Source of the DNA: Ignavibacteriota bacterium | Lineage (GTDB): Bacteria > Bacteroidota > Ignavibacteria > UBA10030 | Assembly (NCBI GenBank): GCA_963701295.1 | Contig: OY969585.1 | Span: forward strand, 576,001-640,000 | Direction: 5' to 3' | Length of the DNA stretch: 64,000 nt | Part shown: positions 6,243 to 40,854 of the stretch, one piece after another | How positions within the stretch are numbered: position 1 is the stretch's first letter | Layout of the letters: every line of letters starts with the position of its first letter | Made by a program: the position numbers and the translations under genes | The notes under the pieces: model-generated | What the model was told of the DNA's origin: nothing | The model's input: only the letters and a program-made list of their open reading frames with translations | Database searches by the model: none

Positions 6243-7694
6243 TTATTTTAATCCTAACTCTTTGCACATCCGGTAGAAGTTCGAAGGCGCAATGCCAAGT
6301 TTTTCAGCTGCATTGGTATCCGAACTGGAAATGCTTCGCACATATTTAAAATATCTGAGCCGAAATGCTTTTTCCATTTCACGCAGTGTCAGGACTTGTC
6401 CTATATTTAACTCATCGAAAGAGGTATCTTTTGAAAGAACAGAGTTCTTCAGAATCATAGGATTACTGATCTCTTTGACACCAATATGGCCTGCATTATT
6501 CAGAACGAGACGTTGTACCACATTGCGGAGTTCACGTACATTTCCAGGCCACTTATAGTTCATTAAGATTTCCTGCGCCTGAGGATCAACTATTGGCATA
6601 GTAATTCCCATATCATTGCTGAAATATTCGAGGAAGTGATTGAACAATAAAATAATATCTTCACCCCGCTGTCGAAGCGGAACAACGTCGATGGGAATAA
6701 CATTCAATCTGTAATACAAATCTTCACGAAAACGTCCTTCATTCACCTCAACAGCAAGATTCTTATTCGTTGCTGCGATAATACGGACACTGACAGACAT
6801 TCTTCCGGTTCTACCAATCTTTTCGATTTCGCCTTCCTGGATCACACGCAGTAATTTTACTTGCGCAGAAAGCGGAAGTTCCAGAACTTCATCCAAAAAG
6901 ATCGTGCCATTATTCGCAATCTCAAACAATCCTGATTTTGTGCTCCCCGCACCGGTAAATGATCCTTTTTCGTATCCAAATAATTCGCTTTCAACCAATT
7001 CGTGTGGAATACTCCCGCAATTAATCGGAATAAATTTTTCGTATTTACTGCGGCTTTTCAAATGAATATTCCATGCAACTAATTCTTTCCCCGTTCCAGA
7101 TCCCCCCGTAATGAGAATACTGGCATCACTTTTTGCATACTTCTCAATCGTTTCGCGTAATTGAATTATTGGTTTCGATTCGCCGATTATTTTTTTTGCT
7201 TCCAATAAGCCTTCTATACTTTGGAGGAGGCGCTTATCAGATTTCAGTTTCTGTTTTTCAAGCCGCTTTTTTTCATAGGCATTGACTATGCTGAGGATAA
7301 AATCAGTCGGCTGATAAATATAATCTTCAATATTCCCTGGGTACTTCGTGCAGTACCAGAACGCTCCTGCTTTGAGAAGATTATTCGCAAAATCAAAATC
7401 GGTTGTATTCGTTGTCATTTTTGTAATGACGACGATCTGGAGGAATGGATCGGACTCCTTCATCTTTTGAATGAGCTCTTCACCCCGCAATCCCCCCGAG
7501 ATTTGATAATCGAGGATGACAACGTCGTACAAATCCGGATGTTGCTGGATGTGTTCCATTGCTGCCCGCCCATTGGAAACCACACTTTCGATTTGAATCT
7601 TTGTCGATGAGAGGCTAATCGTGTTCTTCACACGGGCCACATCAAAATCCTCATCATCAACCAACAGTACTCGAATGACATTTGTGTTCGTCAT
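6243..7694 (-). CDS. Sigma-54-dependent (NtrC-family) response regulator
   Basis: REC domain (LLVDDE, VILD), Walker A GGSGTGKE, ESELFGYEKGSFTGA, FREDLYYRLNV, WPGNVREL, C-terminal HTH. Confidence 0.95.
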   Translation of the reverse strand: MTNTNVIRVLLVDDEDFDVARVKNTISLSSTKIQIESVVSNGRAAMEHIQQHPDLYDVVILDYQISGGLRGEELIQKMKESDPFLQIVVITKMTTNTTDFDFANNLLKAGAFWYCTKYPGNIEDYIYQPTDFILSIVNAYEKKRLEKQKLKSDKRLLQSIEGLLEAKKIIGESKPIIQLRETIEKYAKSDASILITGGSGTGKELVAWNIHLKSRSKYEKFIPINCGSIPHELVESELFGYEKGSFTGAGSTKSGLFEIANNGTIFLDEVLELPLSAQVKLLRVIQEGEIEKIGRTGRMSVSVRIIAATNKNLAVEVNEGRFREDLYYRLNVIPIDVVPLRQRGEDIILLFNHFLEYFSNDMGITMPIVDPQAQEILMNYKWPGNVRELRNVVQRLVLNNAGHIGVKEISNPMILKNSVLSKDTSFDELNIGQVLTLREMEKAFRLRYFKYVRSISSSDTNAAEKLGIAPSNFYRMCKELGLK

Positions 7695-7702
7695 GCAAAC
7701 TC

Positions 7703-9205
7703 CTAATTTTTAATTGCTAGGGAGAACCTGCAGCCACCCTCCAGAAGATTCTCGACATCAAGCTGCCACCCACACTTTCCTACAGCAAGTTGATGTGCAA
7801 TATAGCATCCGTATCCGGAATGAGATTCAGAAGCCCTCTTTGTCGTTTCATGTTCCAGGAAGAGCTTCTTGACACCTTTTGGTCCAAGCTCCAAAAGTTC
7901 CGGAATAATCCCTATTCCATTGTCGGTAATATAGATATATGAGACTTGTTCTTTCCGATCGTATTTCGTTTGGACGTGAATCACAACAAAACTCACTCCA
8001 CAATGATCGATGCTATTTTGGATCAGCGGCTCCAAAATCTCCCATACGTTGAATTCATTGACACGAATGAGAGGAAGTGAGGGATCTAAATCAAGTTTCA
8101 ACTCAAACATCTCGTTTTTGCTTGAAATACGCAAGAACACATGCTGGACAATAAACTCGATTACTGAATTTACATTTGTGCGAAACATTGAATTGATAAT
8201 CGTATTAATATCCTGATCATACCACTTCATGTCATAAATAATTCTTGAGATAAAGTTGGAATAAGTAATAACTCGTTGTTTGAGCTCATTGAGATTTTCG
8301 GAGTTCATCTTTCGGACATCATCTTTTATGAATCCCATAATCTTTTCTGCTTTGTGATGTGTATGGTAAATTCGTTTCGTAAAAAGTGATTCCTTCTCCA
8401 GACGAATCTGTTTTTCGAGGTTTTCCTCATGCTCGAGGAATAGCTCTTCCTGCACCTTGTTACGCTCACTCACTGCGCGCGACGAGACGATGAAAATAGC
8501 AATCAGCCCAATAAGAATGAGTGCAGAAAATATCAGAGCTACTTTATCAAAGCTGGATGTAATCTCTGTTGTAAGAAAGGAAAAGTCCGGAGTAATGCGG
8601 AAATACAGGACACCCAATAATTCACCATCGGGAACAAAGGGAACGATCACATCGAATGTTTTTTCATTCGTGACAGCACTGAGTATTTTTTCATTGCGTC
8701 GCATCTCATCCCAGGCGCTCAAGTAAAACTGGATACCGGTTTTGTGAGGCGTATTTGTTTCTCCCTCATACGGCACGAGTGACCCGTCGAAATAGGCAGA
8801 CATCTTTTGTCCGCTATCAATGATATAGATTCGATCCTCTTTCACAAGAATCAAGCAAATATCATCCACACTGCGGTGGATTTGCTGCTGCTTAAAAATT
8901 ACATTTAAGGAATGGGCAAGACTCATTTCAGTGCTATCCTGCTGGGCTCGAAGACGCTGTTGACGCTCAAACAATAATTCTACGTTCGTCGTCGTAACCA
9001 ACGCAAGACGCTCTGCATAATATTTTTGAAACCAACTCTGGGTATCCCTCAAAAAATTCCCGAGTGTCGCTTTCTGAAAAAATATCAGTATAATCTGGAA
9101 GGAAATGAGGACGAAGAAAATGACGATGATATGCCGGATTTCGAATTGATACCGCGTTAATTTAACTTTAATCTTTTCTGGGAGATGAATGTGAAAACCC
9201 AACAT
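7703..9205 (-). CDS. Membrane sensor histidine kinase (atypical H-box)
   Basis: Two TM segments flank a periplasmic domain; HATPase boxes LIQNSIDH, DNGIGI, GYGCYI; lies directly upstream of the response regulator. Confidence 0.85.
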   Translation of the reverse strand: MLGFHIHLPEKIKVKLTRYQFEIRHIIVIFFVLISFQIILIFFQKATLGNFLRDTQSWFQKYYAERLALVTTTNVELLFERQQRLRAQQDSTEMSLAHSLNVIFKQQQIHRSVDDICLILVKEDRIYIIDSGQKMSAYFDGSLVPYEGETNTPHKTGIQFYLSAWDEMRRNEKILSAVTNEKTFDVIVPFVPDGELLGVLYFRITPDFSFLTTEITSSFDKVALIFSALILIGLIAIFIVSSRAVSERNKVQEELFLEHEENLEKQIRLEKESLFTKRIYHTHHKAEKIMGFIKDDVRKMNSENLNELKQRVITYSNFISRIIYDMKWYDQDINTIINSMFRTNVNSVIEFIVQHVFLRISSKNEMFELKLDLDPSLPLIRVNEFNVWEILEPLIQNSIDHCGVSFVVIHVQTKYDRKEQVSYIYITDNGIGIIPELLELGPKGVKKLFLEHETTKRASESHSGYGCYIAHQLAVGKCGWQLDVENLLEGGCRFSLAIKN

Positions 9206-9208
9206 GGT

Positions 9209-10516
9209 TCACCTGCCCCTCGTTTGACTACCTTCTGCTTCGATAGAAGTTTGCACGCTCTGCAATGCCTTCTCTACCGACATCTTACCTAGGATAGCCA
9301 AATAAAAATAGCGCGCCATAATCTTCGAATATTTCGTATAGTTATCCTGCATAGGCCTATAAACACCAAAAGCCATCATGCCCTTCATTGTGTATATTTC
9401 CGGATATCGTTGACGATATGTCGAATCATTATAAAATGAATTTATCACAGGACAATATCCCCCTTTTGTATAGAATATTTCCTGCGATTCATCACTCAAT
9501 AAGAATTTTACAAAGTCGATTACGGCTTCTTTCTTCGTACTTGACTTCGACATCATCAGATTCCAACCGCCAAAGACATACGTAGGTTTCCCTTCAGGAA
9601 GATAAGGAATTTGTGCTTTCTTCAGATGTTTTTCCTTGTTATGATCAATGGATGCGTTCATAAAATCTTTGTCATAGCTTGTCCACCCACGAATGAATAG
9701 GCCGTCATTACGGATGAAATATTCATAACTTGATACATCTGTGAAATTACTTACCACCGGTGGTGTTACATGGTACCGGTGGACGAGATCCACTAAAAGC
9801 TGGAGAGCAGTTTTTGCTTCAGGCGTATCAAACTGAAAACCTACTGTTTCGAAATAGTTCGGACGCAGACTCAAGAGAATTTCAATGTAGCTGCATATAA
9901 GGCCTTCAAATTCCGCGGCAGGAAAAATATAGAACGGTTCTTTCGCCTTCAATCGTGTTTTCAGTTTTAAAAAATCAGGCCATGTGATTCCTTTTTTGAC
10001 CGCCTCAATTTCTTTTTCGCCGTTGGGAAACCGTTTCAATAAATCTTCCCGAAAGTACATTACTCCCTGAACACGATCGAGAGGAACCGCGACAAGTTCT
10101 CCTTCATGATAGCATGTCCGCAATGCAGTTTCAGTGAATCCCTTACGCTCTTCGTCAGTAAAGTACTTCCCAAGCGGTTCACACCACTTGGCAAACCTAT
10201 GCACCCAAATGATATCGACTGCGAGCAAATCAATAGCGTCATCTTCTCCGCGCAAGGAACGGGCGAGCACTTCCTTCCGTCCATCGGTGCTAAAATCCTC
10301 AAGCGGGAAATCAATCGGAATCACCTTAACTGAGCCGGCATGCATAGAATTATACTTATCGATGAGAATGCGATGTGCTTCCGTTACGCGATCTGCAAAA
10401 TGGATTTCCGTCACAGATTTTTGTGTTCGGTGACTAAAAATATAAAAGGTCAACACATAAAGGAGCGCAAGAGCTGCAAGAAGTCCAATCCCGATTAATT
10501 GTTTACTCGTCATCAA
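9209..10516 (-). CDS. Extracellular sugar solute-binding protein (SBP family 1)
   Basis: N-terminal anchor; DLLAVDIIWVHRFA, GELVAVP, FGGWNLMM, AVIDFVKFLLS. Confidence 0.88.
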   Translation of the reverse strand: MMTSKQLIGIGLLAALALLYVLTFYIFSHRTQKSVTEIHFADRVTEAHRILIDKYNSMHAGSVKVIPIDFPLEDFSTDGRKEVLARSLRGEDDAIDLLAVDIIWVHRFAKWCEPLGKYFTDEERKGFTETALRTCYHEGELVAVPLDRVQGVMYFREDLLKRFPNGEKEIEAVKKGITWPDFLKLKTRLKAKEPFYIFPAAEFEGLICSYIEILLSLRPNYFETVGFQFDTPEAKTALQLLVDLVHRYHVTPPVVSNFTDVSSYEYFIRNDGLFIRGWTSYDKDFMNASIDHNKEKHLKKAQIPYLPEGKPTYVFGGWNLMMSKSSTKKEAVIDFVKFLLSDESQEIFYTKGGYCPVINSFYNDSTYRQRYPEIYTMKGMMAFGVYRPMQDNYTKYSKIMARYFYLAILGKMSVEKALQSVQTSIEAEGSQTRGR

Positions 10517-11094: not shown

Positions 11095-13581
11095 TTACTT
11101 GTTCAATAACCAATCTGCCGCCATAGTTAAGAACATGAAATCCGTTGCTCCTCCACCCATCACATATTCCGTCTGCTGCCAGAAATAGGGCCATATTTTC
11201 AACTCAGGTAAGTCTGGACGAATTATAGCCGTACCGCTCCCTACACCACCTGGAATATATGACCATTCATCTCTGTTGACACCGTAAGCCACTGTCAAGG
11301 ATTTCACTCCAACACCCGAAGCGAACGATGCAGTGTTTTCGCCAGGATGACATCCAAGAATGAAATTCATCGCGTTGAAGGCATATTCAGATGTAAAGAT
11401 CTTGGGAAAACCTAAATAGAGACAGAGTTGCTTGACACCGAATGATTGAATGCTCCACCCCGCTCCCCAGACGTACGGTTTATATGGTACACCATAAGGA
11501 TTCTGTTTCTGTAGTTCGATAATTTTCTCGAATGCTTTCTTGACAGCTTTCTCAATTTTTCCGGTGAATTCATTATTACCCATTTTTGCAGTAACCCTAC
11601 CGATGGTCTCACTGAAATATTCAATATTATCGGTCAATGAGTCTACATATTTTTGTAGATATAATTCATATTCATTTTTCGAAGTTGTTAAGTACAGCTC
11701 GGCAATTGCATTAGCTCTGAGCGTCGGCATTGCAGAGGAATTGCTTTTGCAGAGTTCTTCTGAAATCTTCAAACACTTGCCAGCCAATTCAGGATTATAT
11801 GTTTTCAGCACTCTACACGCTGCAGCCAATACTTGCGCGGTATAGAGTTCTCGTTGAGGATTTTTTTCTGTGAATACCAATCGATCATCTTCCGGCAACG
11901 GTTGACCGAGTATTGGATCTTCTTTATTTTCTTTGTAAACAAGATTATCAGTTATTGTCGAAGCGTCACCTAGATGCACATATTGCTGAAGAGAAACTTC
12001 TTGAATTCCTCGATACAATCTTCCCATCGATTCATATGAACTAACTATGCTTAATACACCATGTTCAATTTGTTGAAGGATATCTGATTTTCCATCCGGT
12101 TTATGAATTTCTACAATTCTTGTCTCTTGATTGATGGACGTCTCGTCATAATTGTTTCCAAAGAACTCATATGCCAGTGCAAGCTTATAGATTGTTTCAG
12201 CTTGCGATTCTATTCTCAGATCATAGTCACCGGCATCATGCCACCCACCAACATTTAATCCAGGCACATGCTCTCCGGATTTGAATTTTGTTAATGTGGA
12301 TTCTAGCTGATAATAACCATCAAAGTGATTATAGTTGATCGGAGCCATAACGGCATCATCCATATGACAGATTCCATGCCATGTTTTGTATCGGTCTTTG
12401 ATTTTCATATGGCACATTTGTACCGGGAGAAAATATTCTAATGTCGGCTGCCATACATGTCTAGCAAAAATATCTCTTTTGATTTCAAATTCATTCGATT
12501 CGACATTGCCATATTGTATTTTGTACAACCCTTCGTCCGCCACATCACTGAAGTCAAATCGCACATACTGATACCGCAAGAATCGTCCCCACGGCTTTGG
12601 AGCAATATCTGCTTTGACCGTTGTTACGGAATCCTCACTAATTTTAAGAAGCTGAACCGGCTCAAAGTTCTCCGTCAATTTATCTAACTCGATTACTGCG
12701 AATTTTGCTTGCTTCGGATGATATCCTATTTGAGACACTTGAATGACCAGCTTATACTTCCAGCCAGGGTTTCGTTTTGGCGTGATTATCCATTCGACTG
12801 CATTTTTGGCGGTACCAGCAGGGATGGTCGATCGTAAGACAAACCATCCGTTGTTATGCAAACCTCTTCCATCAATCAGTTGAAGATCATTTGTTCTGCT
12901 TATAATCTTCAGCTCTTTTCCTATTCTTGTCGGTGCAATGAGCAGTTTTTTCCCTACAGCCAATGGAGTGATTTGGATATTTCCATCTTCATCTCTTTTC
13001 ATTGGACCGTTTGCCTGACGAGGAAAAATACCCGTTTTATTATCCATAAAATAATGCTCGCCAAAGTAATGGCCCGGGAATAATTCCAAATTGAATCCGA
13101 CTTTATTTGCCCACTCCCTGGGGAGGGGTTTTTCGAGATCAACGATAAGTCTTATACTGCCTCCTACTGCTTCAGACCGAATGGTATATTTGAATGTCAA
13201 ATCAGGATAGCGAATCGGGTTAAATCCCTTTTGATTCCTGCTGGAATCCGGATACCACAGATCAACAGAAATCGTTCCCCTCTCTCTATCGATATATTTT
13301 CCACCAATCTTCGGAATTGGTGACCATTGTCCCGGTGTTGGCTCAAGCCGAATATCTCCGTTCGCTGCAACTCGTGTACCGCATTGTATGATGGTCAAGC
13401 CGCTTTGATGACCTTCAGGGTAAAAATCATCAAACATCATGATATTAATCCCTTGAGCCTCATAGTACCCTTCAGTATTTACATGAAGAGTTGTATCAGG
13501 TTGTGCCGAACCAGAATATGAAATCGTTGTGAAACAAAGAATGAGCATTGAAATTATAGTATATTGAACCATCTTTATCAC
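11095..13581 (-). CDS. Glycoside hydrolase family 9 with N-terminal extension and Ig-like domain, secreted
   Basis: Signal peptide; QVSQIGYHP (CelD-N-like); GGWHDAGDY GH9 motif; C-terminal QTEY. Confidence 0.88.
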   Translation of the reverse strand: MIKMVQYTIISMLILCFTTISYSGSAQPDTTLHVNTEGYYEAQGINIMMFDDFYPEGHQSGLTIIQCGTRVAANGDIRLEPTPGQWSPIPKIGGKYIDRERGTISVDLWYPDSSRNQKGFNPIRYPDLTFKYTIRSEAVGGSIRLIVDLEKPLPREWANKVGFNLELFPGHYFGEHYFMDNKTGIFPRQANGPMKRDEDGNIQITPLAVGKKLLIAPTRIGKELKIISRTNDLQLIDGRGLHNNGWFVLRSTIPAGTAKNAVEWIITPKRNPGWKYKLVIQVSQIGYHPKQAKFAVIELDKLTENFEPVQLLKISEDSVTTVKADIAPKPWGRFLRYQYVRFDFSDVADEGLYKIQYGNVESNEFEIKRDIFARHVWQPTLEYFLPVQMCHMKIKDRYKTWHGICHMDDAVMAPINYNHFDGYYQLESTLTKFKSGEHVPGLNVGGWHDAGDYDLRIESQAETIYKLALAYEFFGNNYDETSINQETRIVEIHKPDGKSDILQQIEHGVLSIVSSYESMGRLYRGIQEVSLQQYVHLGDASTITDNLVYKENKEDPILGQPLPEDDRLVFTEKNPQRELYTAQVLAAACRVLKTYNPELAGKCLKISEELCKSNSSAMPTLRANAIAELYLTTSKNEYELYLQKYVDSLTDNIEYFSETIGRVTAKMGNNEFTGKIEKAVKKAFEKIIELQKQNPYGVPYKPYVWGAGWSIQSFGVKQLCLYLGFPKIFTSEYAFNAMNFILGCHPGENTASFASGVGVKSLTVAYGVNRDEWSYIPGGVGSGTAIIRPDLPELKIWPYFWQQTEYVMGGGATDFMFLTMAADWLLNK

Positions 13582-14590: not shown

Positions 14591-16783
14591 TTATTTTTCT
14601 TTTAAGAAATCTTCGTGTGTCAGTATCTTAGGATAACTGTAGAGATCCCTTATTTGCTGTGGAGTATTATGTGTATCGACAAAATTTCCCCAGACCATAA
14701 ACCATGTCCACAGAGGTTGACGTGCCAAAATATCCGGAGGCGGCACTTCTCCCACTTCGCCCAGAGCGATCACTTTCCCTTGACCGAGTTTAACAAGATC
14801 ATCGTGATGACTTTGTCTATAATCACTGTGATAGACATCTGCAGCCAGGACATCAACATACTCTAATCCCGGGAAATAATCTTCATAGGCGTATGCTTCG
14901 TCGTTTATCAACTGACGGGGCGCATTCGTGTTCCATACCCAAATCAAATTGTTGAGTTTGTGATAATTGACAAACCGATCAAACAGCATCCTGTACAATT
15001 TGGCAGATCCATTCTCTCCTTTCCTGTCTCCCCACCAGAACCAGACTCCATTCAATTCATGATACGGTCTCCAGAGAACAGGCACACCACGGATCTGCAA
15101 TTCCTTCAGATATGCAGCAATGGTATCCACCCTGCTTATCCACTTAGAATTTAATTTTGTGCCTGGCGTTATTAATTCTTCCCATTCCTTGTCAGTCATC
15201 TTCGCTTGCACGCTTTCTTTCCAACTAAATGGCGGATCGTCTTGTGGTCTCCCAACATGCCACATTAAAGTAACAATGTATCCATCGTTATATTTCTCGT
15301 AAGCTGTTTGAATAAGCGTATCTGTATATCCTTTACGAAAGTATCCTGCAAAATCGCAGCCCCATATTTCCGGTAATTTTCCAGTAAGCTCCTTTACACG
15401 GTTTGGATATGTATCTGTTCTCCCGACATAATTATGATGACCAGCAATAATATTTTTACCGCTGATAGAATATAAATACTCCAATAATTTTCTTGCTTGA
15501 GGGATGGCATTCTTGTTTACCGGATCAAAATGCTTTTGACCAGGGATGAGTGTCTGACTCTTGAGTCTGTTTATGCAGTTTATCAACGCCCTGGATGTGT
15601 GGTAGTTACCTTTCCAAATTGAGCCTTTTGGAGAATACTTCAAGTTTGGTACGATATCTATACCACCCCAATACCAACCTCCATGTTCTTGATCGATAAG
15701 ATACTTTTTGCAGTAGTTCCACTGAATACAGAATTTTTCATAATATTGTTGCTTATCATGAGGGAAGAGATCCGACATCATCAAAAAGGAATTGAGAGCT
15801 TCCACCTGCGACCACCATTCTTTGGTGTTTCGTACAATCACTGCATTCTTTTCTCCAGGGAAATAGTACCCACCGTCAAAAAGACCTCCACGTTCTTTAT
15901 CCCAACCGTTTCGCAATGCATGATCGACCATCTTTTTAGCAACCCTGAGCGTCGTCGTATCGTTTTTCATACCCAGTGCTTCCGATGCCTCCAACATCAG
16001 ATAAGCCGTCTCGACATCATGGCCAAATGAAACATGATCAAATTCGTAATTCTTCATTCGAACGGCTGCAGTAGAATCCATATAGGATACGGGAGTCAAA
16101 TCACGTTTTAAGAATAATGTCAAATATCCTCTGTCTGTCGTAATGATATCCCGTACCAATCGCAACATTGAGGATAAGCGTTCTTTGAGTGTTGAATCCG
16201 GCCAGACTTCATAAAGCTCAGTGAAACATTCGAGTATGTGGATTGAAGAGTTCTGGTCTTTGGGTGGTGACGCTTTATATCCTTCTCTAAAAGGAATTCC
16301 GTCTTGGGACATGAATTGATAATAACCGCCATGGTGAGGATCATAGCTGTGCTTCTCGAGCCACCAAAAAGTTTCCTGAGCAAGTTTCAGCGCAGCAGTA
16401 TCACCCGAAGCCCGGTAATAAGCGGCTAATCCGTAGATGGCAAAAGCATTTCCATATGCTGTTTTAATGATTTCCCCGAATTCTTTGAGCGGTTCCCCTT
16501 CTCTCGAAACGAGATTAAAGAAACCGCCAAACTCTTTATCCCATATTTTATGTTTTAGGAACTGTACACCGTAGCCAGCCACTTTGCGAAGCGCATTATC
16601 TTTCTGATAAAACATACAAGCATTTGCTGTTGACCAAATATGGCGAGACTGTGTAACAATCATCTTGTTTTGCCTGCCGTCCAGTTTCCATTTATAATCT
16701 ATATCACTAAAATAACCTCCAAACGATGTGTCTATTGATAAAGGATACCAACATCCAAATTCAGTATCGAGAACTTTCTGCAT
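14591..16783 (-). CDS. AGE-family cellobiose/mannobiose 2-epimerase fused to a C-terminal GH26 beta-mannanase (ancestral start probably 16930; in-frame TGA at 16802-16804)
   Basis: N-half: QSRHIW, AYGNAFAIY, KDQNSSIH, SFGHDVE, WWSQVE, WKGNYH. C-half: PVLWRPYHELNGVWFWWG, YFPGLEYVDVLAADVY, IALGEVG. Confidence 0.9.
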   Translation of the reverse strand: MQKVLDTEFGCWYPLSIDTSFGGYFSDIDYKWKLDGRQNKMIVTQSRHIWSTANACMFYQKDNALRKVAGYGVQFLKHKIWDKEFGGFFNLVSREGEPLKEFGEIIKTAYGNAFAIYGLAAYYRASGDTAALKLAQETFWWLEKHSYDPHHGGYYQFMSQDGIPFREGYKASPPKDQNSSIHILECFTELYEVWPDSTLKERLSSMLRLVRDIITTDRGYLTLFLKRDLTPVSYMDSTAAVRMKNYEFDHVSFGHDVETAYLMLEASEALGMKNDTTTLRVAKKMVDHALRNGWDKERGGLFDGGYYFPGEKNAVIVRNTKEWWSQVEALNSFLMMSDLFPHDKQQYYEKFCIQWNYCKKYLIDQEHGGWYWGGIDIVPNLKYSPKGSIWKGNYHTSRALINCINRLKSQTLIPGQKHFDPVNKNAIPQARKLLEYLYSISGKNIIAGHHNYVGRTDTYPNRVKELTGKLPEIWGCDFAGYFRKGYTDTLIQTAYEKYNDGYIVTLMWHVGRPQDDPPFSWKESVQAKMTDKEWEELITPGTKLNSKWISRVDTIAAYLKELQIRGVPVLWRPYHELNGVWFWWGDRKGENGSAKLYRMLFDRFVNYHKLNNLIWVWNTNAPRQLINDEAYAYEDYFPGLEYVDVLAADVYHSDYRQSHHDDLVKLGQGKVIALGEVGEVPPPDILARQPLWTWFMVWGNFVDTHNTPQQIRDLYSYPKILTHEDFLKEK

Positions 16784-16992
16784 CTCGATTATGATTGTAT
16801 CTCAATGTACTTGTACATCATTCGAAAAAATTCTTGCGAAGGTTTTCCCAGTGGCAAATAAAGAAAACAGGGCAACAAGAACGATTAATGAATGCAGTGT
16901 TAATTTGTTTTTCATTTTGTACATGCTCATCGCGGTATTTTCATAATAACAAGTTCGAACGGTTTTCATTTATTTGAAGTTGGAAAAATAAA

Positions 16993-17066: not shown

Positions 17067-19616
17067 CTATTTCAGTAGAAGCATCTTCTTATTTGAAATA
17101 AAGTTGCCGGCATTAAGGCTATAGAAATAGACACCTGAAGATAATTTACTTGCATCGAACCTGACAGATTTAAATCCTACATCCATATATGTATCAACAA
17201 GTGTCGCTACTTGTTGACCTAAAATGTTATACACGGACAGCTTTACGTTAGAAGCTTTAGGAATTGAAAAATTAATAACTGTCGTTGGATTAAAAGGATT
17301 CGGATAATTCTGAAACAGCGAATATCCTTTAGGCACTTCTTTTGTAGCCGATAGTACATCCGTTACTACCGCCGGAACGCCATACATAGATACTTCTGCA
17401 ATAGAATAATATGAGAGGCTGCTCTGTGCTTGCAGCAAAAAATTGACATAACGGCCGATGACATTGAGATTCGAGAAGGTTTCCACATAATTTGTTCCGC
17501 CTGTTCCGCTAAACACAGTTGCTATATTCGTCCAGGTACTTGAATCGCTAGAAATATAAATTTTATACGTTTTTGCATATGCCTTATTGCCCCAGTAAAT
17601 AATGAGTTTATTGACTGTATCCGCCATACCGAGATCGATCAGCACCGCCTGCGCTGTCGCCGATGAAGACTGCCATCTGGAATAATTGTTCCCGTCCACG
17701 ATAAAAGATGGATTGCTGTATTGATAACTCGCTGTGTCGTTTGAAGACACGGTCACAGTAGCTCCATACGCTCTGTCGACCTGATCCGGAGGCATAACCG
17801 TGACACTGATCGTCGACGAATCTTGCACATCCCCTTGTGAGCGCAAGATATATGTATTGCTCAATGTCGTCGGATAAACAATCAGCGAACCGACAACTTG
17901 CACGGTACCTGCATTGAGTGTGACAGTGGACCCTTTAACAGCATGCCATTGTAAAAGAGTACTCTCGCCCGTGCCGATTATGGAAGGAAAAGCAGTGAAC
18001 GATACGATTTTTCCCGAAGGTAAAACCGTTAGAACGATCATAGCCGTATCGTTGACCGTTCCGCTTGTGGTCAATGTATACGATGTTGTTATCAAAGGGT
18101 TCACTTTCATGCTGTCTTTCACTGCAACGATTGTTCCGTTTAATTTTACCGTTGACCCCGGTTCAACATCCCAGCGCAGGTACGTGCTGTCGGTCTTTTC
18201 AATGGTATTGCTTCGTGCGGCAAATGTATAGATTGTACCGGTTACCGGATTCGCCTCAATATCGTCATGATAATTCACATACATATATTTCAATGTTGTC
18301 CATGTATCCACTTCAGAATTTGTCATGCTGAAATCGGTATACGACCACATCATCGCGCCCGAATAACCGTTCGCATATAGATTAGGATAAAGATTCAGAT
18401 CACCTACTCCGTCCGTTGCCGTCATATGAAACTCCGCCGCCACAATGGGTTTTGTCAATCCCCAATAGGATGCAGGATGCAGAAATGGAGAAAATTGGGT
18501 TCCATCACCAGTATAGTAATGCACACAATAGAAATCCAACGTACCCAAACTGTCGCCTCCTACTGCAATAAGGCGATCGTCTTTATAATAGTTGTAGTTC
18601 GAGGACACCGCAACTGCCTGCAAATGTGCAACATATTCATTCGCAGTCAAATTGGTGCGATGATGGGCATTAAATGTGTTCGCAAGTTCCTGCTTTTCGG
18701 TGGATGACATTGAACTGAGTTTTTGTAGATCTGAAGTACTCGAAGTAGCGGAAGGAGTAACATCCGTTAATGTCTGGAATGTTACTGCCCCGCTGGTGAC
18801 AAGAGCATTCGGATCCGTGTGATGAATTGCTCCCGCCGTGAGATTGATAAATTGCTGAACCGATGCCATCGGAACATGATTTGTTGTCGACCAACCGAAT
18901 TCGTTTGTCAGACCTTCAGGCTCGTTGAAGATTTCCCATGACCCAATTGCCGGGTGACCTTTGACTGCATTGACCATCGGAATGAGTGCGTTCCGTATAT
19001 ATGTATTCGTATACGATGTATCCGTTAAGAGTTTTGCATTGCGATTCAGTTCTATTGAATTCAATTCGGATGTATTCAACATATCATGAGACCATAAACA
19101 GAGGATAAGACCGATATCATTCGCCTTTGCCATATCCAATATTGTTTTCAAGTTCGCAATGGCGACCGTTCCGGGACCGGTAACATATCCATTTGCATTA
19201 AATACCGGCGTCTGTGCACCGTTTGTATGCAGCCAGAACCGCATAACGTTGCCCCCGTACGAATGGACAGTCCGGAAAATTGTTTTAAATGATGCCGTAT
19301 CCACCGCAGTCGGTCCTAAATCGCCGGCAAAACTAACCCATGCGACATTAAGTCCGCTTATAAAAATATCTCTATTTGCATAATGGACTCTGTTGCCGGA
19401 AGCAGAGTACGATGTTTGATAAAAGGTAAAGAGCATTAAAATGCCCAAATATAATCCCTTTTTATAAAAAGATATTCCTAATAAATTGTTTTTCGCAGAT
19501 TTTCTCCAGAATATCTCAAAGAACGATTGAAACCGACCTTCCTCCTCGAACCTTTCGTAGTCCATTATTCCCTTTCTATTTATAACTGCTCCATCCCTTC
19601 TATTGCATAACAACAA
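17067..19616 (-). CDS. GH5 (subfamily 10-like) endo-beta-mannanase + Ig-like repeats + F5/8 (CBM32) + T9SS CTD; true start probably downstream of 19616
   Basis: ISGLNVAWVSFAGDLG, RFWLHTNG, WEIFNEPEG (acid/base), VHYY, AAEF (nucleophile); VDGNNYSRWQS...IDLG; QNYPNPFNP...KKMLLLK. Confidence 0.85.
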   Translation of the reverse strand: MLLCNRRDGAVINRKGIMDYERFEEEGRFQSFFEIFWRKSAKNNLLGISFYKKGLYLGILMLFTFYQTSYSASGNRVHYANRDIFISGLNVAWVSFAGDLGPTAVDTASFKTIFRTVHSYGGNVMRFWLHTNGAQTPVFNANGYVTGPGTVAIANLKTILDMAKANDIGLILCLWSHDMLNTSELNSIELNRNAKLLTDTSYTNTYIRNALIPMVNAVKGHPAIGSWEIFNEPEGLTNEFGWSTTNHVPMASVQQFINLTAGAIHHTDPNALVTSGAVTFQTLTDVTPSATSSTSDLQKLSSMSSTEKQELANTFNAHHRTNLTANEYVAHLQAVAVSSNYNYYKDDRLIAVGGDSLGTLDFYCVHYYTGDGTQFSPFLHPASYWGLTKPIVAAEFHMTATDGVGDLNLYPNLYANGYSGAMMWSYTDFSMTNSEVDTWTTLKYMYVNYHDDIEANPVTGTIYTFAARSNTIEKTDSTYLRWDVEPGSTVKLNGTIVAVKDSMKVNPLITTSYTLTTSGTVNDTAMIVLTVLPSGKIVSFTAFPSIIGTGESTLLQWHAVKGSTVTLNAGTVQVVGSLIVYPTTLSNTYILRSQGDVQDSSTISVTVMPPDQVDRAYGATVTVSSNDTASYQYSNPSFIVDGNNYSRWQSSSATAQAVLIDLGMADTVNKLIIYWGNKAYAKTYKIYISSDSSTWTNIATVFSGTGGTNYVETFSNLNVIGRYVNFLLQAQSSLSYYSIAEVSMYGVPAVVTDVLSATKEVPKGYSLFQNYPNPFNPTTVINFSIPKASNVKLSVYNILGQQVATLVDTYMDVGFKSVRFDASKLSSGVYFYSLNAGNFISNKKMLLLK

Positions 19617-21417: not shown

Positions 21418-23148
21418 TTACTTCATCATAACCATTTTCTTTACAAGAAGTTGATTACCTGCTTGCAGGCTATAGAAATATACACCGCTCGCAAATTTGC
21501 TTCCGTCGAATGTTACGGCATGATCGCCGGCACTTTGCATACCGGATATTAGAGTTTCGACTTCCTGTCCGAGGATATTAAATACTTTCAAATTGACTGT
21601 TCCCATAGTCGAAAGAGAATATTTAATCTGTGTTGTTGGGTTGAAAGGATTCGGATAATTCTGACCAAGAGAATACTTATTTGGAATAACGGTTTGAGTT
21701 CCCTTTACGGAAGTAACAATCCCTCCGGTATGAGTCAAGTCATTTTCAGAACTCCACGATGCTTTTTGTGTTGGGAACCAACGCAAATCACCGATCGGGA
21801 ATGAAAAATAGCCGCCTTTTGCAAGTGTATCGTTTGCATAGGCAAGATTTTCCGTAAACGGCCAAACTAAGGCTTGATAATCCGGTTTGTACATCCAGTT
21901 GACATTTCCACCGGCGCCATACCGTGCTTTTAAGAATGACCATATGCTGTCATAGTTCGTCGGTTCCACTTGAAATCGAGGATTGTATATTCCCGTGTTA
22001 TCATCATCAATAAGGTTATTGACTGACTTGCAATTTCCGCCAAGTGTATAAAGCGACTTGTCAAAGAATGCGGCGCTGCGATCATTCATCCACGGCTCAG
22101 GCAAAATAATGCGTTGTCCATAATCTGGTGCAGTAATCGGTACTGTATCGTTATAGGCCGCATAGAATGTATCAAACCACGGCTCTCTATAATTGGCGTT
22201 ATTGGCAATAACAAGGATACGTTTATTTTCTGTTGTGCCATTTGTAACATCGATAGCTCTGTTACATGTATCAATATTAAGCACGCCATACAGTTGATTA
22301 TCCAAATCTTGACCAGCACGATCCGCATAACGTTCTCCAGTATAATGGCAATTTACAAACAAATTGTTTGTAACATAGGCGTGATACCAATAGCTTTCCT
22401 GAATGGCAAACTTCGAAACGTTCAAGAAGGTATTATGGTTATAATATGCATAACCTATATACTGTCCTTGCGTTTGAATTCCAAAGCCCACGTTGTAATA
22501 GCTGCAATTTTCGCTGTAACAGGTATCTCCTGTTGCGACATTTACATTATAATAAATAGAACGCCCTCCCCACCACTGACTGGGATCGACGCAATTCCTG
22601 ATAATGCAATTTGTGAACCAAGAATTAAAATGATGCCCATTCGTAATGATAGTGGGAGCTTGGTCCAAATCAAAAATGCAATTATCGAACCTGCAATACG
22701 TACTGTCGTTATTGAAAGTCATTTGAATCCACGACTGCGCACCGGTATTATCTTCATATGAAAACCAAACATTCGTTGCTATTATAGAACCATAGCAGTT
22801 AAAATTCGACGTATAATAAACGCCAGAAACATATCCGGGCTGAATCATCGCCATACTGGTCGAAGGATCATTCCCCGGTATTTCGCCGTATAATCTAACG
22901 ACACGGTGTTTATTAGTTACAATGGAACCGTTTAAAAGGTAAATATAACCCTTATGCAATCCATAGATTCTATTCGGATATGCTGCAGTTCCATCAGGAA
23001 GCGTGTCTCCAGCAATAACAGTGTTGATATCGCCCAGCGCATACGAATCGATCCATAAAGTATCGCCTGATTGATGAGTTGTCTGTGCGGGTAACTTTGT
23101 AAGCCCCAAACATAGCAAAACAGCCAAATATAATACACTTTTTTTCAT
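21418..23148 (-). CDS. T9SS-sorted protein, probable parallel beta-helix, directly downstream of the TBDR
   Basis: Signal peptide; repeated FDNCIF / FTNCII / SENCSY / NHNTF / TNNLF; PIGDLRWFP; QNYPNPFNP CTD. Confidence 0.8.
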   Translation of the reverse strand: MKKSVLYLAVLLCLGLTKLPAQTTHQSGDTLWIDSYALGDINTVIAGDTLPDGTAAYPNRIYGLHKGYIYLLNGSIVTNKHRVVRLYGEIPGNDPSTSMAMIQPGYVSGVYYTSNFNCYGSIIATNVWFSYEDNTGAQSWIQMTFNNDSTYCRFDNCIFDLDQAPTIITNGHHFNSWFTNCIIRNCVDPSQWWGGRSIYYNVNVATGDTCYSENCSYYNVGFGIQTQGQYIGYAYYNHNTFLNVSKFAIQESYWYHAYVTNNLFVNCHYTGERYADRAGQDLDNQLYGVLNIDTCNRAIDVTNGTTENKRILVIANNANYREPWFDTFYAAYNDTVPITAPDYGQRIILPEPWMNDRSAAFFDKSLYTLGGNCKSVNNLIDDDNTGIYNPRFQVEPTNYDSIWSFLKARYGAGGNVNWMYKPDYQALVWPFTENLAYANDTLAKGGYFSFPIGDLRWFPTQKASWSSENDLTHTGGIVTSVKGTQTVIPNKYSLGQNYPNPFNPTTQIKYSLSTMGTVNLKVFNILGQEVETLISGMQSAGDHAVTFDGSKFASGVYFYSLQAGNQLLVKKMVMMK

Positions 23149-23254
23149 TGTTCTTCTCCTTTGAAGTTTGTTTATTGTATAAAAAACACGTTGAATCGTT
23201 TGGGCTTTTTTACCTCCTTTCTACTTCTTGAAAATAATATGTTTTTTTTATTCA

Positions 23255-26200
23255 TTAAAATATATATCGAACACCTATGTCAACCGTCAAACCATAGAAC
23301 TGTTCCGATGATATTGCACCAACCCTGGCATTCCTTGAAATATTAGCCTGTTCTGTAAGATTAGTTCCATTCAAATACAACTCCAACCCTTTCCAAGGCA
23401 ATTGTTGCCTAAGAGATACATCTAACTGAGAATAGGGGTCATTATCGCCATCTGTTTCAGGCCGTAAAGCGATATACCCGATGGTTTTACCTTGGTACAA
23501 GTATGATATTCTGCCTGAGAAACCTTTATAGTCGTATCCCAAGGTGACATTGAAAATATCGTTCGGTTGGTTTACCAATGGACCAGCTGTGGATGAATCA
23601 ATAAAATTAGTTACTGATAGTTTAGGGGTTGGATGAGTCGTTACAGCCATTTTAAGAGGATAGATAGCATTGGACTGGATATGGGTATAATTGACATTAA
23701 AGACCAAGCCATTGAGTGGGGCTGGCAAATACCAAAAACGAGTTTGCCAATCCACTTCAACTCCTTTTAAATATGCATTGTTCGTTAAGTTGACCCAGGA
23801 ATTTACCTGAGTCGAGCCGAGATTTACATTTACTAAATTATTATATAAGTTCTTAAAATACGATGCACTCTCGAATCCTTTTGGTGTTAATGAATCAGGA
23901 AATATATTATATTGGGTTGCATAGATAAAGTTCTTGATAGTTTTATAGAACCCGCTCACCGAAAATAATCCGATCATGTTGCCATGCACAGTAAACATTA
24001 CGTCATGATTATATGATTCTGCGGGTATAAGATTCGGATTGCCAGTATAAATATTTGCACTCGTATTATCTTCAAGAAGGTACGGTGAGTTTGCCGTATA
24101 ACTCGGACGCGCAAGAGTCTGTGTATACGCATAACGAATGTCTATATTTTCAGATACATCATATTTTGCCTGTATATCCGGCAGCCAATAATGATTTTCA
24201 GTATTTGAGTGGACAGTCAGATACTGCTGTCCCACAGGACTTTCAGTCGCCTTCATTGCATACGCAGTGAATTTCGTTACATCTTCTTCAAATCTTGCAC
24301 CTCCCGTAACAGAGAAACTTGTACCAATATTCAACTCAGCCATCGAATAGGCAGCAGAGCGTTTTTCATTATTTATATAATCGTTTGCCACAATTTGCCA
24401 TGGCCCATTATACCATGATTCGTTGTTGTTAAAATTATTTAGATATGCTTTATCGCTTTCAACAAAATTCATCATATCACCGAGTACACCGTTAGTAGGC
24501 GCCCAAATAAGGTTTCCCCATCGGTTGCCTAAAAAATTTGAAATCAGACTCTGTTGATTCTTCGCGGCAAAATTATATGCCCAAAAAGTGCCAGCTCCAT
24601 TATTGGGGTCACGTATTAATTGGCTAAATTCCGGTTGTGCCGCAATCCTATCGTTAAAACCTCTACTGCCGCCATAAAACGGCTCAGCATACGGATTATC
24701 TTGATTGTTATCGCGATCATTACTTTGGAATTTGCCTCCGAATTTAAAATAACCCGAAATATCTGTCGTTAACGTAAACGGTATTTTAAAATTGATGGCA
24801 TACGTTTGTCCATTATCTTTAAAGAAGTACGATCCATCACCCAACTCATAAAGGCGTGTAGTTGTATCAAATGACGCCCCTGTAGTTGCGATAAGATATT
24901 CAGGGGTTTGATTTACAAGAGCATGTGCACTTATAGATTTCAAAGCACTCTGATCCCAGAAGAGGAATGTAAAATCATGTGGCACGGTTTGCTGCGTAAA
25001 AGAATTTGAAACGCTAAAATCTGCAGAAACAAAGCCAAAATCGTACTTACCTTGAACCGAATTCGTTGCTGCATCAGTTGTGCCTTTACCATACCGTAAT
25101 GTATAATCAATGTTTTGACCGCTGTAATCGTAATTTGTCGTATAGTCAGTCGAATTTGAAATCAGTTTGCTGCCCATGTTGATTATCGAAATCGAACCTT
25201 CAGGCAGTTTAAAATCGAGGATTAAATTAGCTCCATAACGCGTCCGTGTTTCATCATGCCTATCCAGTTGAATATTATTAAGCGAAACATTGGCTATTCC
25301 TGTATTTTGATTGACAGATGTTACAGAATAACCGGAACTGAGATTATCCGCACTTCGGTCATACTGTTCTGCATTAGCAAGAAAGTATACGCCCATAACA
25401 TCGTTAAAAAATCTGTCGCTTACATCACCTGTAGCCCTGAAGTTATTATACGTATTTGATTTATGAACATAACCGCTTTGCCATTTCAAATCAGTGTGGA
25501 ATCCGCTCGGAGCTTCACGGAGCTGCATGTTGATATAACCACCGACTGCATCTGCTTCCATATCCGGCAAAAGCGTTTTATGGACCTCAATGGACTGTAA
25601 CATATTAGGACTGATCATCGAAATATCTGTGCTTCGATCCTGCGATTGTGACTTATTAGGATATGCAGGGTCATTGTTATTTAAACCTGAAGCATCACCT
25701 GTGCCGCCCAAAGTAATACCGTTGATAGCCACTAAATTATATTGAGGGTCAACGCCGCGGATAACGACTTTGCTGGCCTCACCGGAATTTCGCATTGTCG
25801 AAACACCGGGCAGACGTCCAATTGCTTCTGCTGCGTTGGCATCCGGCAATTCCTGTATTTTCGCTTGAGAAACAATGTTTACCATATTTTTCGCGGCAAG
25901 CTGTTGGTTGATCGCCTCAATCTGTCCTTGTGCCTGAGCCGTCACTGTAACGACTTCACCGACGATAACTTCTGTGAGCAAACTAAAATTTTCTTCTTTC
26001 ACTTCTCCACTTGTCACAGTTACCTCGCGGGTATCTTTTTTGTAACCCACATAGGAAACTTTTAATGTATATGTTCCGGCGGGAACATTTTTTATGACGT
26101 AGTTTCCTTCATTATCTGTAGCTGCGCCCAAGCTCGAATTTTGAATAACTATATTTACTCCAATTAACTCATCCCCTTTTTCTTTATCAAGAACACGTCC

Positions 26201-26308
26201 CTTTATCGTACCGCTGCCTTGAGCGAAAGCAACCTGAAGAACGAAAACAAAACTAAGACACAAAACAAGAAACAAACAGTCAAACATCCGCAATTTTTGA
26301 ATTGCCAT
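23255..26308 (-). CDS. TonB-dependent receptor (carbohydrate uptake)
   Basis: CarboxypepD_reg N-domain; plug (ELPDANAAEAIGRLPGVS, IRGV); GNPNLIP; NLT; terminal aromatic residues VRYIF. Confidence 0.95.
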   Translation of the reverse strand: MAIQKLRMFDCLFLVLCLSFVFVLQVAFAQGSGTIKGRVLDKEKGDELIGVNIVIQNSSLGAATDNEGNYVIKNVPAGTYTLKVSYVGYKKDTREVTVTSGEVKEENFSLLTEVIVGEVVTVTAQAQGQIEAINQQLAAKNMVNIVSQAKIQELPDANAAEAIGRLPGVSTMRNSGEASKVVIRGVDPQYNLVAINGITLGGTGDASGLNNNDPAYPNKSQSQDRSTDISMISPNMLQSIEVHKTLLPDMEADAVGGYINMQLREAPSGFHTDLKWQSGYVHKSNTYNNFRATGDVSDRFFNDVMGVYFLANAEQYDRSADNLSSGYSVTSVNQNTGIANVSLNNIQLDRHDETRTRYGANLILDFKLPEGSISIINMGSKLISNSTDYTTNYDYSGQNIDYTLRYGKGTTDAATNSVQGKYDFGFVSADFSVSNSFTQQTVPHDFTFLFWDQSALKSISAHALVNQTPEYLIATTGASFDTTTRLYELGDGSYFFKDNGQTYAINFKIPFTLTTDISGYFKFGGKFQSNDRDNNQDNPYAEPFYGGSRGFNDRIAAQPEFSQLIRDPNNGAGTFWAYNFAAKNQQSLISNFLGNRWGNLIWAPTNGVLGDMMNFVESDKAYLNNFNNNESWYNGPWQIVANDYINNEKRSAAYSMAELNIGTSFSVTGGARFEEDVTKFTAYAMKATESPVGQQYLTVHSNTENHYWLPDIQAKYDVSENIDIRYAYTQTLARPSYTANSPYLLEDNTSANIYTGNPNLIPAESYNHDVMFTVHGNMIGLFSVSGFYKTIKNFIYATQYNIFPDSLTPKGFESASYFKNLYNNLVNVNLGSTQVNSWVNLTNNAYLKGVEVDWQTRFWYLPAPLNGLVFNVNYTHIQSNAIYPLKMAVTTHPTPKLSVTNFIDSSTAGPLVNQPNDIFNVTLGYDYKGFSGRISYLYQGKTIGYIALRPETDGDNDPYSQLDVSLRQQLPWKGLELYLNGTNLTEQANISRNARVGAISSEQFYGLTVDIGVRYIF

Positions 26309-26533
26309 ATTAATCTCCTCTTCTTTTATCTGATTCTATCGCCCTATAGAATGATCATTCAAATCCATGCTTACAGCATTTAAAAAATTCGAACGATTGA
26401 TATGAACCTTGCAATAAGTACAAAGAACCAAGACAAACCCTGCGCAACATCACCCTGCGCTTTAGAACTTCATGCATAGCGTTTAATAAAAAATACTCGA
26501 GACAAGCTTTCCACGCATAAACAAAAGCGGCAT

Positions 26534-26556
26534 TGGCGGCATCTTGGATGCCGCCA
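26534..26556 (-). terminator. Stem-loop between the T9SS binding protein and the TBDR
   Basis: Perfect 10-bp stem TGGCGGCATC-ttg-GATGCCGCCA; T-tract follows on the minus strand. Confidence 0.65.
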
Positions 26557-26595
26557 TATTCGCATTTACTGAAACATTTGAAACGATATTACTAA

Positions 26596-28533: not shown

Positions 28534-29030
28534 AACTACCTCCGAGATGGTTTTTTGAATTGTTGATTTGGTTTTTCTATTTGTAACAAAATTAATTAGT
28601 GCGAAATGTATACTCATAGTTAAGATAAAAAATCAATTAGCTGTAAATTGTTTTTTTTGTTCAAAACTCTTCAGATAAATATATTATCCAGTATATTGAA
28701 GGTTCAAGCCAATATGAACGCACCCCTGTAAGAAGAATCTGTACAATTATTCTTTCTTACTTTTGCCTAAAACTTACAATTTACCGTCGCAATAGTCAAT
28801 AGATAGATCTTTATGCAGGAAATATACTTGTATATCTTACACACACATGATGCCACCTTTTATTTAGATACAAGAAATAAAATTCGTTAATACACGCCAT
28901 AAATCAATGTATATAAGGTAATCTTTATATATCATTTTAATAAGTATATATTATTATGATAATGCATGATTCGTATAGATTTCAATTCTATTGCCAGTTA
29001 TGATACTTTCATATTTCAAGAAGAGTTTCC

Positions 29031-31684: not shown

Positions 31685-32872
31685 ATGTTAAAAACAGAGT
31701 TTGATAAAAAGGTACAGCTGTTAATAAAAGACCATGAGTCCTTTCTTTCAACAAAGAATATAAAAATTGAAAAAGGAAATGGCATCTATCAGCGCTATGC
31801 CAATCCGGTTGTAACGGCTGAACATACGCCTCTCTTTTGGCGATACGATCTAAATTATGAAACGAATCCATATTTGATGGAGCGTATCGGAGTTAACGCT
31901 GCATTTAACTCTGGTGCAATAGAACATAATGGAAAAATTTTGTTGGTGGTTCGTGTCGAAGGAACAGATCGAAAATCCTTTTTTGCCATTGCGGAATCTC
32001 CTAATGGAATCGATAATTTTCGCTTCTGGGATTTCCCGATTCAACTGGTAGAAACTCCGGATGCCGATATTAATGTGTACGATATGCGGCTTGTGAGACA
32101 CGAAGATGGATGGATCTATGGTTTGTTTTGCACAGAGCGGAAAGATCCGAGTGTTCCGCGAACGGACACATCTTCTGCTATCGCACAATGCGGTATTGTG
32201 AGAACGAAAAATTTATTAGACTGGGAACGACTGCCGGATTTGGTCACAAAATCTCCACAACAAAGAAATGTGGTTCTCCATCCGGAATTTGTTCATGGCA
32301 AGTACGCATTCTATACGCGGCCGCAGGATGGTTTCATCGAAGCAGGGTCAGGTGGCGGCATCGGGTGGGGTCTATCTGAGAAAATTGAGCATGCAGTGAT
32401 TGAAAGTGAAATTATTATCGATGACCGTTCTTATCACACAATAAAAGAAGTCAAAAACGGTTTAGGCCCTGCACCAATCAAAACGACCAGAGGCTGGCTA
32501 CAACTTGCACACGGCGTCCGGAACACTGCTGCAGGACTCCGGTACGTTTTATATATGTTCCTTACCGATTTGAAAGATCCTGCAAAAGTCATTGCAAGAC
32601 CAGGCGGATATTTTATAGCTCCCCAAGGGGCTGAGCGTGTGGGTGATGTCTCAAATATTGTCTTTAGTAATGGATGGGTGAAACGCGACAGCGGCGAAGT
32701 GCTTATCTATTATGGTTCATCTGATACAAGAATGCATGTAGCTGTTTCCACTGTGGATCAATTGCTCGATTATGTACTCCACACTCCAGAAGATGGATTA
32801 AAGACAGGTACAAACCTTCAGCAGCGTATACAACTTATTAATAGAAATCTCGAAATGCTTCATCGCAAGTAG
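31685..32872 (+). CDS. mgp: 4-O-beta-D-mannosyl-D-glucose phosphorylase (GH130_1)
   Basis: [64 protein letters not shown]. Confidence 0.93.
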
Positions 32873-35737: not shown

Positions 35738-35763
35738 TTTTTCATTCTTCCAAAGCTATAGAT

Positions 35764-38343: not shown

Positions 38344-38458
38344 AACTCTCCGAGAATGTTAGATCGTTCATGAATTCACAGTACACATTTGAAATGCGAT
38401 CTCATTGGTACACGGTGTTTTATTCTGTAGAGAACAGTTTTGCATTTCTTTTGATTGA

Positions 38459-39802: not shown

Positions 39803-39886
39803 TTTCATAATACTTCTTCATCGCCGATGAAAAGAGAATTTGCTGACAACGGGTTCGCATTTTTTCAAAATGAGCAATCAGTCACA

Positions 39887-40852: not shown

Positions 40853-40854
40853 AC

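Follow-up and report, generated by a model that had tools for sequence, protein, structure and literature searches.

A recurrent fusion of an AGE/CE epimerase domain with a GH26A-type domain in a beta-mannan locus, and its possible role in an exported epimerise-and-trim enzyme

The 64,000-nucleotide stretch analysed here (the window; positions 576,001 to 640,000 of contig OY969585.1, forward strand, assembly GCA_963701295.1 of an Ignavibacteriota bacterium) encodes P0001, a protein in which a cellobiose 2-epimerase (AGE/CE) domain is joined in frame to a glycoside hydrolase family 26 (GH26) domain. This combination of two known families is a real, recurrent and apparently undescribed architecture. 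We tentatively propose, at a little short of an even chance, that intact members of the family are two-domain exported enzymes, which would epimerise the reducing end of beta-1,4-manno-oligosaccharides and then trim it. The value of the finding lies in the family, since the copy in the window is interrupted by a stop codon. The features of the gene are as follows.

16783..14591, minus strand: P0001, the CE-GH26 fusion, a single open frame of 730 residues
15551..16783, minus strand: AGE/CE (alpha/alpha)6 epimerase domain, residues 1-411 of P0001, with N178, H182, E185, H255, E258, W390, H395 and R398
16037..16087, minus strand: insertion of about 15 residues before His255, absent from RmCE and StCE, with a longer one at the same place in the Runella mannose 2-epimerase
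15533..15550, minus strand: interdomain linker, short and of strongly conserved length
14594..15532, minus strand: GH26 domain of the Muricauda GH26A type, acid/base E576 (15056-15058) and nucleophile E676 (14756-14758)
14885..14923, minus strand: 12-residue insert (residues 621-633) common to P0001 and GH26A and missing from 3ZM8
16835..16915, minus strand: predicted Sec signal peptide, with an ATG at 16915 and another in-frame ATG at 16930, parted from the enzyme by a TGA
16804-16802, minus strand: the in-frame TGA, codon 43 from the ATG at 16930, between the leader and the epimerase core

An earlier note, made from this DNA alone, had described an in-frame AGE/CE-GH26 fusion, and profile searches bore this out: PF07221 was matched at residues 23-371 (E-value 1e-35, 124 bits against a Pfam cut-off of 23.4) and PF02156 at residues 422-722 (2e-51, 175 bits against 20.2) of the same frame, and the motifs it had named are present as H182, H255 and H395 in the epimerase and E576 and E676 in the GH26 domain. 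Both Pfam domains were found in 105 of the 119 other protein clusters listed as homologues, and for 92 of the 119 a single alignment spans 97% or more of the query. The fusion lies in one open frame in 6 of 60 related genomes, and the ESM Atlas holds two clusters with the CE-GH26 architecture, of 103 and 59 members; named carriers include UBA10030, Ignavibacteriae and some Bacteroidales metagenome-assembled genomes. Together these clusters and genomes rule out an assembly chimera of two genes, the artefact that the note had considered. The database labels of these proteins read only mannobiose 2-epimerase or glycosyl hydrolase. Neither a CE-GH26 fusion nor an exported CE was described in the titles and abstracts found by full-text searches, which left the subscription literature on CEs largely outside their reach.

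Conservation was read from an alignment of 91 rows, comprising the window protein and 90 of the 92 full-length homologues. H182, H395, E185, E258, W390, R398, H575 and both GH26 catalytic residues, E576 and E676, are invariant in all 91 rows, and H255 is kept in 90. With both catalytic sets conserved in this way, the idea that one domain is dead, also raised in the note, was rejected at the level of the family. The distance from motif to motif across the linker is 22 residues in 73 of the 90 rows measured and 20 residues in 9. The AlphaFold model of the fusion scored a predicted local distance difference test (pLDDT) value of 92 and a predicted template modelling (pTM) score of 0.87; a contact between the two domains is suggested by the pTM and the linker length. 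By a simple rule, the leader is hydrophobic in 78 of the 83 homologues in which it is at least 25 residues long, 7 further rows being too short to judge. P0001 had no match to PF18962 or TIGR04183, the C-terminal domains of the type IX secretion system (T9SS), though these are present on neighbouring proteins; the periplasm is therefore the likely place of the exported family members. Thus the bifunctional exported enzyme of the earlier note, while not encoded by this copy, is supported for the family by the conserved active sites, the leaders and the beta-mannan locus.

The epimerase domain superposed on 3WKF, 5ZIG and 8H1L with Foldseek TM scores of 0.85-0.86 (0.85-0.89 over the AGE fold matches). 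The RmCE active-site residues Tyr124, Asn196, His200, Glu203, His259, Glu262, Trp322, Trp385, His390 and Arg393, numbered by counting from the printed alignment to 3WKF, could all be aligned with it and are kept in 86-91 of the 91 rows. H255 and H395 of P0001 align with His259 and His390, whose catalytic roles have been reported (PMC5726027). One departure from RmCE and StCE is the insertion before His255, which differs in sequence from the Runella loop and is shorter. In the Runella mannose 2-epimerase the long loop, with its Trp and Asp254, reportedly covers the pocket and is said to exclude disaccharides. The insertion is shared, however, by a second epimerase, which adjoins a phosphorylase in the same locus.

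31685..32872, plus strand: mannosylglucose phosphorylase (GH130), matching 3WAS at E 1e-175
32929..34284, minus strand: signal-less epimerase paralogue, about 47% identical to the fused epimerase

Apart from the fused and the signal-less epimerase, the genome has no PF07221 gene. Since the insertion-bearing paralogue is the only candidate for supplying mannosylglucose (Man-Glc) to the phosphorylase, the long-loop clade most likely acts on beta-1,4-linked di- and oligosaccharides. In a quick tree, 17 of 18 signal-less long-loop paralogues fell in one clade (support 99) among leader-bearing rows; the trees were quick IQ-TREE and FastTree runs without bootstrap, from which 10 and 19 duplicate, partial or distant rows had been dropped. 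In related genomes, too, the phosphorylase has a signal-less epimerase as its neighbour, of the long-loop kind described here or of the short-loop classical type, and the leader-bearing epimerase is grouped there with the transporter and hydrolases. This repeated two-epimerase pattern implies that the exported epimerase is additional to the known cytoplasmic step.

The nearest structure to the GH26 domain is that of GH26A from Muricauda (6Q75, E 7e-121; the next GH26 gave 3e-42), with 51% identity to chain A and a target TM score of 0.94-0.95 in 310 columns over the 310-residue chain. CjMan26C, a mannobiose-releasing GH26, matched at an E-value of only about 1e-13. PMC9860051 describes GH26A as inactive on commercial mannans and manno-oligosaccharides, as probably periplasmic, and as having subsite +2 blocked by a loop that 3ZM8 lacks; its authors suggest that the enzyme may act in exo fashion on the reducing end of some as yet unknown manno-gluco oligosaccharide, and report that it abolished the signal of the LM21 mannan epitope on algal bloom material. 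Relative to 3ZM8, the window domain and GH26A have a single large insertion in common, the insert at residues 621-633. Its motif occurs in 91 of 91 fusions, with R623, D628 and A630 invariant, and in only 6 of the 150 nearest GH26 representatives at 50% identity. We infer that this insert is the loop closing subsite +2, the match being drawn from a source text that gives no residue numbers for the loop. Release of mannobiose by the GH26 domain, as the earlier note had supposed, is accordingly doubtful for a GH26A-type enzyme with a blocked +2 subsite and a nearest relative inactive on these substrates (PMC9860051). The genome holds a second GH26 (G000:C1:3015817-3016809) of 516 residues, with a leader, about 40% identity, an extra C-terminal domain and no GH26A insert.

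Partnership between epimerase and GH26A-type domains recurs in four arrangements: the window type (long-loop CE-GH26); GH26-CE with a long-loop epimerase (P0101, and the partial P0123 from Gemmatimonadaceae); short-loop CE-GH26 (P0193, 4 full-length members); and GH26 followed by a short-loop CE (P0214, 2 full-length members). In the FastTree run the GH26 halves of P0193 and P0214 stand on another branch than that of the window protein, and their epimerases fall outside the long-loop clade; the number of independent fusions was read from domain order and branch placement, with no formal clade test. The two partners are also found as separate neighbouring genes (L025, L028 and L091). In other proteins the GH26A-type domain is fused to GH5 glucanase-like domains (L079, L083, P0144 with 191 members, and P0224), the best matches of the L079 and L083 GH5 domains being Cel5C 8BN7 and 5A8M, to esterase domains (P0145) or to itself. 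Some 100 clusters of 610-750 residues (P0146-P0256) carry PF02156 only, P0146 and P0163 being tandem GH26-GH26 proteins. Among P0408, P0410, P0411 and P0124-P0143 we found stand-alone epimerases with leaders (P0408, P0410, P0411, P0125 and P0127), on both short- and long-loop branches; on their sequences, exported CEs are broader than the fusion. GH26A-type genes in two SusC/D loci of rumen Bacteroidales (L069 and L071) occur with a distant AGE gene, a ROK gene and DUF4434, a context that may indicate a substrate containing mannose linked to N-acetylglucosamine (Man-GlcNAc).

GH26 enzymes require mannose at subsite -1, and endoglucanases leave glucose at the reducing end. In the model that we favour, the epimerase domain would convert the reducing-end mannose of beta-1,4-manno-oligosaccharides to glucose in the periplasm, turning Man(n) into Man(n-1)-Glc, and the GH26A-type domain, whose subsite +1 would prefer glucose, would then clip off the reducing-end glucose. 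With subsite +2 closed, a GH26A-type enzyme could remove only one reducing-end sugar, and glucose rather than mannose is proposed as that sugar because GH26A fails to cut manno-oligosaccharides with a mannose end. The cycle would repeat until a disaccharide was left for the cytoplasmic epimerase and phosphorylase, the freed glucose might be taken in by way of the GluP-type transporter and the ROK kinase encoded in the locus, and glucanase partners would create the same glucose reducing ends from glucomannan. The evidence for this account is the nearest structure GH26A, the four fusion arrangements, the minority insert type, the GH5 fusions, the conserved catalytic sets with the linker and pTM, the signal-less epimerase already beside the phosphorylase, and the Roseburia epimerase RiMep, which acts on oligosaccharides above a degree of polymerisation of 2 (PMC6385246). 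The wider proposal, of a so far undescribed periplasmic route from mannan to glucose in which exported oligosaccharide 2-epimerases work with a glucose-releasing GH26 exo-enzyme and the two have been fused at least four times, is possible but rather less than evenly probable.

Several observations weigh against this model. The loss of the LM21 epitope with GH26A is poorly explained by a single clip at the chain end. The fusion is missing from 8 of the 15 related genomes with this epimerase clade, only a GH26 remnant corresponding to residues 611-657 is kept in G044 and G060, and the fusions of L008 and L042 are frameshifted. In 31 loci checked (two of them repeats, with flanks of mostly 1.5 kb) most had no GH26A-type gene, while most stand-alone GH26A-type genes among 67 loci had no epimerase within 10 kb, and several lay among sulfatases or rhamnosidases (79 of 208 neighbouring open reading frames scanned). 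In a fifth arrangement, the single-member P0126, the GH26 joined to the exported epimerase is of another type, and since the searches were seeded with insert-bearing GH26 the four-of-five count is biased and no unbiased census; the GH26A-type domain is also fused to a GH8 xylanase-like domain (P0201). The epimerase domain reached 150 bits against the NCBIfam EpiA equivalog NF041848, whose cut-off is 800; that model is narrow, but the domain does fall in another clade. It scored about equally with CEs and with the Runella mannose 2-epimerase. Free mannose would probably be usable anyway, because the GH2 beta-mannosidase-like enzyme of the locus has a hydrophobic N-terminus.

The remaining genes around the fusion form a locus of beta-mannan type, as follows.

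17067..19616, minus strand: GH5 endo-mannanase-like gene with a T9SS tail, upstream of the fusion (best match 2C0H, E 1.5e-46)
11095..13581, minus strand: divergent GH9 gene (best PDB match E 6e-8)
6243..10516, minus strand: sugar-binding protein (SBP), histidine kinase and sigma-54 response regulator, by profile matches
21418..28617, minus strand: TonB-dependent transporter between two T9SS-tailed proteins
34631..42306, minus strand: CE2 esterase, GH2 beta-mannosidase-like enzyme, ROK kinase and GluP-type glucose/galactose transporter
29031-30223, minus strand: gluconolactonase-like gene with a T9SS tail, recognised by eye, with several in-frame stops and frameshifts

The locus has a further esterase gene besides CE2, and no sulfatase was found among its scanned proteins. 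A GH9 gene accompanies the fusion in L002, L004, L005/L021, L025, L026, L033, L034 and L042, and SBP genes lie near exported epimerases in L009, L014, L016, L024, L042 and L090. The SBP, kinase and sigma-54 regulator, which occur without ABC permeases and are conserved beside exported epimerases, look like a dedicated sugar sensor. In place of SusD, the TonB transporter has as its partners T9SS-tailed proteins that belong to no known catalytic family, a pairing that recurs in many related loci. We also recognised by eye a P-type ATPase-like C-terminal remnant (window 5142-5822, minus strand) with no upstream part in frame, and a DNA methyltransferase and endonuclease-like pair (window 42778-44770, minus strand) that adjoins the sugar locus.

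Four other explanations were weighed against the epimerise-and-trim model. The GH26 domain might cut mannan or manno-oligosaccharides to mannobiose, which the fused epimerase would turn into Man-Glc in the periplasm for uptake or for relief of product inhibition. Such an order fits the known pathway (PMC12871903 and PMC6385246), the phosphorylase in the locus and the joining, in P0126, of the exported epimerase to another GH26 type; however, the inactivity of GH26A on these substrates, its blocked +2 subsite and the signal-less epimerase already adjoining the phosphorylase make it unlikely. A looser coupling is likewise rather unlikely. Here the exported epimerase would have a task of its own, for instance making an epimeric inducer for the SBP-kinase system or supplying periplasmic beta-mannosidases with Man-Glc, and the fusion would be no more than a joining of operon neighbours. 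It would account for the common occurrence of the exported epimerase alone, for the repeated loss of the GH26 half, and for epimerases near SBP genes but without GH26 (L009, L014, L016 and L090) or beside GH5 and GH2 (L117). Because the exported epimerase often stays close to the SBP gene where GH26 is missing, the idea in the earlier note that the enzyme generates an inducer for the SBP and kinase retains some support. Against loose coupling stand the nearly fixed linker length and the fact that one minority GH26 type recurs in these fusions, with either domain first and with epimerases of more than one branch.

That the GH26A-type domain cuts some other mannoside, decorated or algal, with the epimerase acting on the product, appears improbable. 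GH26A was active only on bloom-derived material (PMC9860051), and in L027, L028, L031, L032, L035, L036 and L038 its stand-alone relatives have sulfatases and rhamnosidases around them, but the window locus encodes plain (gluco)mannan enzymes with no sulfatase among the proteins scanned. Most improbable is that the GH26 domain frees a reducing-end mannose, as RiGH113 does, and that the AGE domain is a mannose 2-epimerase making glucose from it. The long insertion before His255, as in Runella, and scores that are similar for 8H1K/L and the CEs would allow this reading. In contrast, N178 corresponds to Asn196 of RmCE, a position held by Asp in the Runella enzyme, the same insertion is present in the phosphorylase-adjacent paralogue, the only other AGE gene of the genome, P0193 and P0214 have the short loop, and GH26A does not cut manno-oligosaccharides.

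The copy in the window departs from the family. The earlier note had read 16930..14591 as one gene and missed the in-frame TGA at 16804-16802; the signal-peptide-like segment that it noticed is present, but is cut off here from the enzyme. The leader, basic and then hydrophobic over the 42 codons ahead of the stop (peak 9-residue hydrophobicity 3.1, cleavage site judged by eye), is nearly identical in P0107 and in the same-genus genome G009. In 105 rows of homologues the column of the TGA holds Arg in 52 and Lys in 25, and G009, 89% identical to the window copy over the aligned stretch, reads CGA at this site. Thus the leader belongs to the gene, which is broken by one C-to-T difference. As assembled in this genome the gene is unable to make an exported protein, and translation restarting at the ATG at 16783 would yield a product that lacks both the leader and the beginning of the first helix. 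Either the copy is a pseudogene, or it encodes a truncated cytoplasmic form, or the stop stems from an error in the assembly, with a real nonsense mutation and a consensus error about equally probable. Recoding of the TGA was not supported by the aligned Arg/Lys and the CGA of G009, a judgement based on this site with no genome-wide codon test.

No sequencing runs of the source strain were found; two runs matched (shares 0.07 and 0.05), both from relatives, and with almost no cover at the TGA they are uninformative on the stop and on expression. No RNA runs are listed. The TCGA word is not under-represented (ratio 1.01), a value that is uninformative on a methylation-linked error. In a comparison with G009, for which 210 of 291 G009 genes were aligned, 19 of the 210 genes showed a net frameshift in this assembly, of which about 7-8, read by eye, are single-base mid-gene frameshifts, suggesting residual assembly error or decay. 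There were nine in-frame stops; codons 10-13 account for four of them, the other five fall in two frames resembling shadow open reading frames, and none of the nine was a clear mid-gene nonsense mutation. The gluconolactonase-like gene, 12 kb from the fusion, is broken repeatedly, and real decay therefore occurs in the locus.

Should the epimerise-and-trim model hold, it would represent a new GH26 activity, with Man(n)-Glc as the missing substrate of Muricauda GH26A, and the family offers a direct test of what this structurally solved, substrate-less enzyme cuts. The finding also points to a widespread clade of signal-bearing epimerases, whereas the pathway papers put this step in the cytoplasm (PMC12871903 and PMC6385246), and one enzyme turning manno-oligosaccharides to glucose would be useful for the saccharification of softwood or copra.

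The beta-mannan GH26-CE-GH130 pathway (PMC12871903 and PMC6385246), known from Bacteroides, Roseburia and Cellvibrio, is among the closest known systems. Like it, the locus here has GH130, a signal-less epimerase, GH5, GH26, CE2 and GH2, but it has one epimerase more, which is exported and joined to a kind of GH26 that is not known as a mannobiose producer. RmCE (3WKF), StCE (5ZIG), Cellvibrio EpiA and Roseburia RiMep share with the fused epimerase the fold, the aligned His, Asn, Glu, Trp and Arg site residues and a phosphorylase in the locus; the fused domain differs in its 26-29% identity by structure, its 15-residue loop insertion, its leader and its GH26 partner, and the RmCE 185-188 stretch finds no clear match in it. 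EpiA is predicted to be cytoplasmic (PMC12871903), and RiMep is drawn in the cytoplasm in the Roseburia scheme (PMC6385246). The mannose 2-epimerase Runsl_4512 (8H1K-8H1N) has the same fold, a similar score and a long loop at the same place, whereas the loop here is unrelated and shorter, Asn rather than Asp stands four residues before the first His, and the paralogue serves a disaccharide phosphorylase. GH26A of Muricauda sp. MAR_2010_75 (6Q75) has the same catalytic residues and 12-residue insert and, according to PMC9860051, is predicted to be periplasmic and lies in a beta-mannan locus; it is a single-domain protein, whereas the GH26 domain here has an epimerase attached that could be the source of the substrate missing for GH26A. 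The proposed reducing-end exo action on manno-oligosaccharides is shared with an intracellular enzyme of a different family, which releases mannose without an epimerase, whereas the enzyme in our model would release glucose.

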